A stretch of DNA of 64,000 nucleotides from Eledone cirrhosa (Eukaryota). Below the pieces are notes generated by a model that saw nothing but the letters and a program-made list of their open reading frames with translations, was not told the DNA's origin and did not search any database. The position numbers and the translations under genes are program-made. The stretch lies in contig OZ024743.1 in the NCBI GenBank assembly GCA_964016885.1, positions 206,398,001 through 206,462,000 of the forward strand. The letters are read 5' to 3'. The first letter of the stretch is position 1. Each line of letters opens with the position of its first letter. This document shows positions 47,576 to 49,167 of the stretch, one piece after another.

Positions 47576-47957
47576 ATATATATATACATATACATATATA
47601 CATATATATATACATATATATATACATATACATATATATATATACATATATATATATATACATATATATATACATATACATATATACATATATATATATA
47701 CATATATATATATATACATATATATATACATATACATATATATATACATATATATATATATAGTATTAGTTATACTATTTATGGTTATGTAAATACAAAA
47801 CCTTATGCAGTTATAAGTATTTTACACGCACCCTAAATAGTGGTAGGCAGTAATGTATTACTACCTTATTACCAGTAAGTTAAGTAGCTCAATGTAAAAA
47901 CATCAGATGATTTACAGAGTAGTTATATGAAATATAAGAATCAAAGAACCGTTCAAA

Positions 47958-48025
47958 ACATTATTGTGCTTACAGCTGTTTCCTCCAAACCGAGGTTTGG
48001 ATTCTTCGGAGCAATTTATTAATGC
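47958..48025 (-). ncRNA. Inverted copy of the type I hammerhead candidate
   Basis: Reverse complement of 49062-49129 with one change in loop II. Confidence 0.72.
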
Positions 48026-49061
48026 ATGGACAGTTATATGACCTCCTTTTCAGCCGAGAGACATACCGATACATATTCAAACATTGATACATATACAAAC
48101 ATTGTGGGTCAACATTCAATCCTGCAATCACCGCGCCTGGTCCTATGAGTAGACTACAACCACAGAGATCATTAATTTAGAATCCTCGCTCATCATCTAT
48201 AATTTCCATTTGTGGCACCTTATGATGGGTTAATCCACCATAATAATATGATCACCTTCAGCATAACTTAATTAAACTACTCTATAGTTAATACACTTTA
48301 TGCTTTAAAAATTTTCTTGGAGGATGCGCATCACCATAGAAATTAGGGTCTATATTGTGACACATTTTAATAGCTAGGTATAGAATCCCCGGAGTTACCT
48401 CCCCGCATGCATTAACTCCCCTTAGCCACACACTTCCGGGTGGTATTCAATGGCGTTTCTCGAAACGTAACAGCCTCCTGTATTGAACTAAAGAACACCA
48501 GACTACGATCTCTAGCTGGATTGTCAAACGCTCAATATCGGATTGTCGTGGATTATGTGAGGGGCATATAATCGAAAAATACACTCCCCTGACCATGAAA
48601 ATGCCGAAGTACATGAAATACTTGACATCCCTTCGCTGTGCATCTCCAATACTTTTAACACTTTTAATGCTTGCACTATTTTTAATGCTTATAACATTTC
48701 TCCACACACAGGCTATATCAATCATATAAAGAATTTGCCACCAGATCTACCAACCTCACACTCTTGTTTACCTACCTAAGTGCCTCTACCACACATATCT
48801 CTCTGCCACACTATATAAACAAGACGCACATGCGTGCCACACATATAACATTGCACTATATAACCGCTTATCTTCATGTTGTACTTTAACCTGTATTTTT
48901 GATTTTTGATTGTACCTCTTAATATAAATGTAATCTCGAAGTGTGTACTGCCACTCTAAATTCTGTAATGAATGTTGACCCACAATGTTTGAATATGTAT
49001 CAATGTTTGAATATGTATCGGTATGTCTCTCGGCTGAAAAGGAGGTCATATAACTGTCCAT

Positions 49062-49129
49062 GCATTAATAAATTGCTCCGAAGAATCCAAACCTCAGTTT
49101 GGAGGAAACAGCTGTAAGCACAATAATGT
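49062..49129 (+). ncRNA. Type I hammerhead ribozyme candidate (U4C core variant)
   Basis: TGCT-CCGAAGA-A-TCCAAAC CTCA GTTTGGA-G-GAA-ACAG CTGT-A-AGCA. Stem I is extended by GCATTA/TAATGT and stem III is palindromic with no loop. Predicted cleavage GUA| after 49116. Confidence 0.75.
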
Positions 49130-49167
49130 TTTGAACAGTTCTTTGATTCTTATATTTCATATATTTC

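Follow-up and report, generated by a model that had tools for sequence, protein, structure and literature searches.

Positions 47763-49172 of the window, by which we mean the entire 64,000-nt stretch of Eledone cirrhosa DNA analysed here, very probably hold the 3' end of a Hydra-type Penelope-like element (PLE), a young element of 4.19 kb, in two 5'-truncated copies arranged head to head. We put the probability of this reading at about 0.85, a figure that covers the whole explanation, including a likely double-nick origin and the start of copying at two sites, A and B. Taken alone the locus is ordinary and its layout of a known kind; published examples already include truncated copies that are inverted and have a tail on one side (PMC8557442; PMC3846280). 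What our analysis adds is a U4C hammerhead core found throughout the family, a long tail and 3' region, and a strict pairing of end types.

Structure and age of the insertion

The initial annotation had described a recent Penelope-like insertion with an inverted truncated copy, which is borne out by the parent open reading frame (ORF) found elsewhere in the genome. The inverted arms that it placed at 47924-48118 and 48969-49163 are real, each being 195 nt long with 3 differences between them, but its left boundary of 47924 lies too far inward. The left arm runs 161 bases further, to 47763, and in 15 of 29 close copies the matching sequence lies beyond the right-hand end. The insertion is composed of a 356-bp arm ending at B and a 1,047-bp arm ending at A, joined head to head with a 2-bp overlap, and both of its outer ends run into (TA)n. 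Its parts are as follows.

47573-47762, no strand: left (TA)n-type microsatellite, the insertion target (from sequence; outer ends of family copies abut (TA)n)
47763-48118, minus strand: left arm, a 356-bp inverted, 5'-truncated element end that ends at the distal site B
47763-47927, minus strand: 165-nt tail between end points A and B (mapping and comparison with close copies)
47967-48013, minus strand: left hammerhead motif, mirroring the right one, with a C4 core and a cut predicted between 47971 and 47970
48117-48118, no strand: head-to-head junction with 2-bp microhomology (CA)
48117-49163, plus strand: right arm, the final 1,047 bp of the non-coding 3' region, terminating at the proximal site A
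49074-49120, plus strand: right hammerhead motif (sequence, alignment and predicted fold)
49164-49172, plus strand: extra 9-nt repeat of the element end
49169-49208, no strand: right (TA)n microsatellite (from sequence)

The left arm aligns with positions 4354 to 3999 of the reference unit L055 at 97% identity, and in full-length tandem copies its 165-nt tail continues into the ORF. Mapping and the upstream sequence of other copies place the start of the right arm ~500 bp downstream of the ORF stop codon. The right end had been said to run into (TA)n, which it does by way of the one extra 9-nt repeat of the element end, a likely product of re-priming when reverse transcription starts.

The interior had been regarded as decayed, with faint traces of a GIY-YIG endonuclease. 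Relative to the 29 close copies, however, it carries 1.66 substitutions per 100 positions, compared to 1.19 and 1.70 for the two arms; these copies are best hits, and the divergences are lower bounds for the family that can be compared with one another. The interior is as young as the arms and is the last kilobase of the 1.5-kb non-coding 3' region. The peptides NTLYALK and PLATHF are indeed readable in one frame, but the endonuclease similarity they were thought to indicate did not materialise: a frame-wise search with a profile of 121 related proteins yielded nothing at E<1.3 (E>=1.3 and negative bit scores in all frames), and the best tblastn match of the interior to the 121 protein queries was E=0.008. 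The same profile gave 9e-51 on the real endonuclease region. Most of the long matches among the 40 candidates scored, of 2,356, in a genome DNA search with the 1,240-bp query span query positions 194-1240 at 96-98% identity. Upstream of that point, the other copies share sequence encoding the reverse transcriptase (RT) thumb and the GIY-YIG domain, and this shared coding sequence stops ~500 bp before the window junction. No long second ORF was found in the 3' region at the four loci where it was delimited, the longest stop-free stretch being 99 codons.

Elsewhere in the window, a strand-skewed satellite with a unit of ~25 bp, mixed variants and longer-range repeats of 6.5-8.8 kb occupies positions 1-29700 and is followed by a run of N near 29700-29890. 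A LINE at 43423-46742 (-) is split over two frames, with an AP endonuclease in a 685-aa frame and an RT and a PHD-like finger in a 337-aa frame. Two 5'-truncated LINE RT fragments lie beside (TA)n at 51230-52597 (+) and 53986-55473 (+), the second of which has a Pfam RVT_1 match. Further hammerhead-like CTGA cores occur at 53343 (-), 53653 (-), 59156 (+) and 59425 (-), two of them 310 bp apart in a direct repeat.

The parent element and its clade

Open frames of 832 codons, indicating intact copies of the parent element, were found at 3 of the 11 loci checked (L038, L053 and L055). L053 and L054 together make up a ~9.3-kb head-to-head insertion (G000:C1:56974000-56985300), in which each arm exceeds one full unit and one arm has the intact ORF. 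The unit is 4,189 nt long, with a tail of 165 nt and a non-coding 3' region of ~1.5 kb. As expected of an endonuclease-bearing PLE, the parent codes for RT and GIY-YIG in a single ORF, which is absent from the window copy. The family also displays the partial tandems (pLTRs), 5' truncation and optional tail of PLEs, and a direct pLTR and tail lead into the ORF at L040, L041, L051, L052 and L053-L055.

The parent protein, P0001, contains RWR (position 51), DKT (135), YRDD, FNPP, CxCX5C (691), IIY..YVG, CxxC (789) and CxH (817), and it lacks DKG. RWR is a conservative change from RWK, and RW[KR] is present in 111 of 120 relatives. GxKF/Y has a single match, at 586, far from the N-terminus; one cysteine lies between IIY and YVG, and CCHH is absent. 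The Hydra clade is characterised by DKT for DKG, RWK, no N-terminal GxKF/Y and insertion into (TA)n, along with a C-terminal endonuclease that has a CxCX5C linker, no CCHH, and CxxC and CxH around E and N (PMC8557442). Compared by eye, the P0001 sequence follows the Hydra rows of the supplementary alignment of that paper. Judged by its motifs and this by-eye alignment, the parent element very probably belongs to the Hydra-type PLEs. Pfam and PDB searches with P0001 returned no RT or GIY-YIG match, and GIY-YIG was found in 2 of 50 relatives; the domain calls therefore rest on motifs and on the by-eye comparison with the published alignment. P0001 has 829 relatives at E<=0.001, the best of which share 33-42% identity and, where named, are molluscan. 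Asparagine-rich inserts occupy residues ~490-545, between RT and thumb, and ~615-685, between thumb and linker, and resemble those described in rotifer Penelopes (PMC3846280).

Members of the Hydra clade such as Hydra-1_Obim and Penelope-13_HM (Craig et al. 2021, PMC8557442) have in common with the present family the single ORF with RT followed by GIY-YIG, the protein motifs listed above, (TA)n targets (here at the outer ends of the copies listed), a 3' hammerhead with palindromic helix III, an inverted 5'-truncated copy and a one-sided tail. The family departs from them in size: the unit measures 4.19 kb, whereas the complete Hydra families listed in that paper measure 2.1-2.7 kb and a length below 3 kb is given there as a descriptive trait. 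The ~1.5 kb of non-coding 3' sequence is a feature of the present family, and its tail of 165 nt compares with 30-40 nt described for PLEs (PMC8557442). Finally, the hammerhead core is CCGANGA, with C4 in 5,412 of 5,495 motifs, rather than the CUGANGA, i.e. U4, of all 26 Hydra rows of File S2 of that paper, and we therefore class the family as a variant. Compared by eye, the protein of Hydra-1_Obim differs in sequence from P0001. We consider the family a new one of Hydra type. Between its subfamilies the 3' region diverges faster (68-70% identity) than the ORF part (86-88%).

The Naiad clade, which has an N-terminal endonuclease, DKA and no canonical-order hammerhead, was rejected because of the C-terminal endonuclease and DKT, and Nematis was dropped on domain order and motifs. 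The flanks of L032 and L037 contain fragments of a second, different PLE family with a GTAMG motif, which we take to be Neptune-like.

Paired end points and a probable route of integration

Two fixed end points, A and B, lie 165 nt apart; a copy of the family stops at one or the other and then runs into (TA)n. A hand tally of the two-armed insertions with both ends readable gave one A end, which lacks the tail, and one B end, which has it, in 56 of 56 (p=1.4e-17 under independent 50:50 end choice), and an automated subset gave 26 of 26. The tally leaves aside L064 and L074, in which the partner end is interrupted, the one-ended loci L009, L011, L016, L018, L023, L025, L027, L030, L031, L035, L040, L055, L072, L081, L083 and L088, and several single older motifs. 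Five seemingly single copies bear a micro-arm of the opposite end type. Along contig C1, 24 consecutive loci of the window subfamily comprise 17 A+B pairs, one unclear case, two that directly abut (TA)n and four with other junctions, with no like ends among them.

Arm lengths range from under 20 bp to over 4 kb across the family; of the 26 pairs, 15 have the A arm extending further 5' and 11 the B arm. The junctions of these pairs show an overlap of 1-12 nt in 17 cases, are blunt in 4 and contain extra bases in 5. Of 31 A ends, 6 carry a short repeat of the element end like the one in the window, compared to 1 of 33 B ends (Fisher p=0.05). A script flagged target duplications at 6 of 41 loci compared to 0 of 41 shuffled pairs, and only those at L036 and L098 adjoin the ends; such duplications are mostly masked by (TA)n and are not of fixed length. 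None was flagged in the window, where the flanking (TA)n would mask any such duplication. The A ends of L066, L100 and L102, from older subfamilies with CTCT before TATA, have long (TC)n runs separating the element from (TA)n, a hint that the start site is copied repeatedly in a telomerase-like manner. The tail has predicted hairpins that are kept across 12 copies, with a double change in 1 of 21 predicted pairs and almost no covariation support for the consensus fold.

The parent element, the fixed end points A and B, the pairing of one with the other, arms of variable length and short overlaps at the junctions are all observed. From them we infer a route in which both strands of a (TA)n repeat would be nicked by the element endonuclease and primed for copying of the element RNA by the RT. 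The two cDNAs would start 165 nt apart, one at site A and one at the more distal site B; each would stop early, and the two would then be joined by microhomology. Nicking and priming on both strands were shown in vitro for another PLE clade (PMC11167929). If two independent RNAs were used, about half of the insertions should have like ends; none was seen, and a single RNA on which each site is used once is therefore favoured. The strict pairing thus likely marks two start points of copying on one RNA, and it seems fairly probable that a protein dimer uses both, displacing a strand wherever the arms overlap. Counting against a single RNA, both arms can be long and overlap, as in L084, where each exceeds 3 kb, and in L053/L054, where each exceeds one unit; the same RNA must then be copied twice.

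The closest parallel is Poseidon of Anolis carolinensis (Frangieh et al. 2024, PMC11167929), in which, as proposed here, the interval between two internal RT start sites equals the tail; cutting and extension of both target strands, AT-rich targets and a predicted protein dimer are further likenesses, which for the present family would follow from the route above. Poseidon belongs to another clade, however, and its start sites lie close together. It also speaks against the two-start model in that the start sites showed no strand preference in vitro, whereas genomic insertions here always have one of each. Moreover, the Anolis start is not homologous to the cut DNA (PMC11167929), unlike sites A and B, both of which carry a TA matching the target.

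Other origins for the window insertion were weighed against these data. The initial annotation had proposed a non-autonomous Penelope derivative moved in trans, its ends young and its interior an old, decayed endonuclease. The window copy lacks coding capacity, motif-like peptides can be read in its interior, one other copy (L002) matches the whole 1,240 bp, and the RNA template of the window copy could have come from an intact or a broken master alike. Nevertheless, the interior is neither old nor an endonuclease remnant, since its age equals that of the arms, it has no protein similarity and the true endonuclease ends ~500 bp upstream, and the family has intact ORFs; the argument for mobilisation in trans therefore falls. 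L002 (= L042) has its tail on the opposite arm and a different junction, and is therefore a separate event rather than a copy of a fixed composite. We regard this origin as very improbable. There is next to no chance that the insertion is a TIR DNA transposon (MITE) with fixed 195-bp terminal repeats, an interpretation that its near-identical inverted ends and TA-rich target might invite and that had already been disfavoured: the two ends are never alike, the arms vary in length, the sequence continues into an RT-endonuclease ORF, and there is no constant target duplication.

A subtler possibility is that the same element generated its inverted arm by self-priming (fold-back) of one cDNA or antisense template. 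Adineta vaga Penelope (Arkhipova et al. 2013, PMC3846280) has inverted pLTRs, an optional tail on one of them and microhomology junctions, as does the family described here, and self-priming with palindromic junctions was proposed for such head-to-head structures in rotifers; short junction overlaps would suit the annealing of a folded strand. In the window, however, it is the longer arm that ends at A, and the shorter arm has 165 nt that the longer one lacks. The shorter arm is therefore not a copy of the longer, which excludes simple fold-back for this layout, and the near-even share of pairs in which either arm reaches further 5' also argues against it. Fold-back survives only with later trimming of a longer double-stranded intermediate, through staggered endonuclease cuts at A and B, and we judge it unlikely. 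Two starts, at A and at B, remain our preferred account of the two arms.

A hammerhead motif with a C4 core

Each arm contains the hammerhead motif reported by the initial annotation, and an alignment of 20 sequences confirmed its CCGAAGA core, 7-bp helix II and loop-less palindrome ACAGCTGT; the U4C change is real in both arms. The right motif consists of a 4-bp helix I, the core CCGAAGA (49078-49084), an A.G mismatch, the 7-bp helix II, GAAA and the palindrome ACAGCTGT (49108-49115), and the predicted cut falls after 49116, as previously proposed. An Rfam scan of the insertion reported no hammerhead, even at E<=10. The motif pattern matched 5,495 times in the 3.0-Gb genome and 0 times when reversed, and is not due to chance. 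U4 occurs in 83 of the 5,495 motifs, scattered over all subfamilies and in a CG context, and therefore likely arose by deamination after insertion. C4 is the normal state of the lineage and not a lesion of the window copy. A looser pattern gave 9,175 CCGA-core matches (control 19) and 731 CTGA-core matches (control 50), and older subfamilies have a CCGATGA core and a GUC site.

The 20 aligned motifs have the helices I and II, palindromic helix III, catalytic bases and NUH site of a minimal type I hammerhead, and lack its U4 and its 10.1-11.1 pair: 18 of the 20 have C4, and in 15 no pair forms directly beside the core. The letters at N7 and H17 vary, always among those permitted. In helix II, an A-U to G-C change appears in 5 of the 20. 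The covariation score was reached by 3 of 500 shuffles and the percentage paired by 15 of 500, with 3 of 5 measures not above shuffles; this covariation reflects a few transitions between subfamilies, and tests of this sort are inflated by relatedness. Among the 5,495 motifs the centre of the palindrome is AGCT in 2,061, AGTT in 722 and AACT in 23, the listed remainder being mostly AATT. In a dimer AGTT would form a G.U wobble and AACT a mismatch; the palindrome has kept its self-complementarity. When two copies of the window motif are folded together by minimum energy, a dimeric hammerhead is predicted, and the monomer fold is unremarkable (z -0.5 and -0.95). On these predictions the hammerhead would fold only as a dimer via its palindrome, and it fairly probably cuts slowly or with the help of protein, because C4 replaces U4 and the pair beside the core is open.

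Metazoan PLEs have minimal type I hammerheads (Cervera and de la Peña 2014, PMC4209133) with a helix II of 7-8 bp, a helix I of 4-5 bp, a palindromic, loop-less helix III that needs a dimer, and opposite-strand pairs a few hundred bases apart, all as here. The present motif differs from them in U4C and in lacking the G10.1-C11.1 pair; U3-A8 is a core variant named in that paper. We found no report of U4C in PLE hammerheads in the literature searched; the supplements of PMC4209133 and bioRxiv 10.64898/2026.07.22.740005 could hold such variants.

Alternatively, the hammerhead may have lost its cutting activity and persist as a fold for dimerisation or protein binding, which would account for the fixation of C4 across all subfamilies seen and for the frequent lack of pairing beside the core. 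U4C is reported to lower hammerhead activity in vitro (PMC3088659), and hammerhead mutants did not impair insertion in vitro (PMC11167929). On the other hand, every other catalytic base is invariant in the 20 sequences (G5, A6, G8, A9, G12, A13 and A14) and H17 is never G. U4C is also reported to permit the infectivity of a viroid in vivo (PMC3088659), and published Hydra hammerheads commonly have a U.U mismatch beside the core (PMC8557442). We consider loss of cutting rather unlikely, though a serious contender, and prefer a slow or protein-helped ribozyme.

A broader proposal can be made only tentatively, as a whole that may well fail in one of its parts. A recently mobile lineage may have kept a down-tuned U4C core through at least five subfamilies and ~9,000 motifs, with the palindrome repaired by a wobble step from AATT through AGTT to AGCT. 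The ribozyme would then be a deliberately slow, dimer- or protein-gated switch that CUGANGA searches miss, and each insertion would be made by one protein dimer that begins copying a single RNA twice, once from each of two sites separated by 165 nt.

The excess of CCGA-core over CTGA-core matches to one shared pattern suggests that CUGANGA descriptors undercount PLE hammerhead motifs. With strict end-type pairing and a long tail, the one-sided tail already known from PLEs becomes a sharp constraint on their integration. A young family with intact ORFs whose copies have spread despite an activity-lowering core variant offers a direct test of what PLE hammerheads do.
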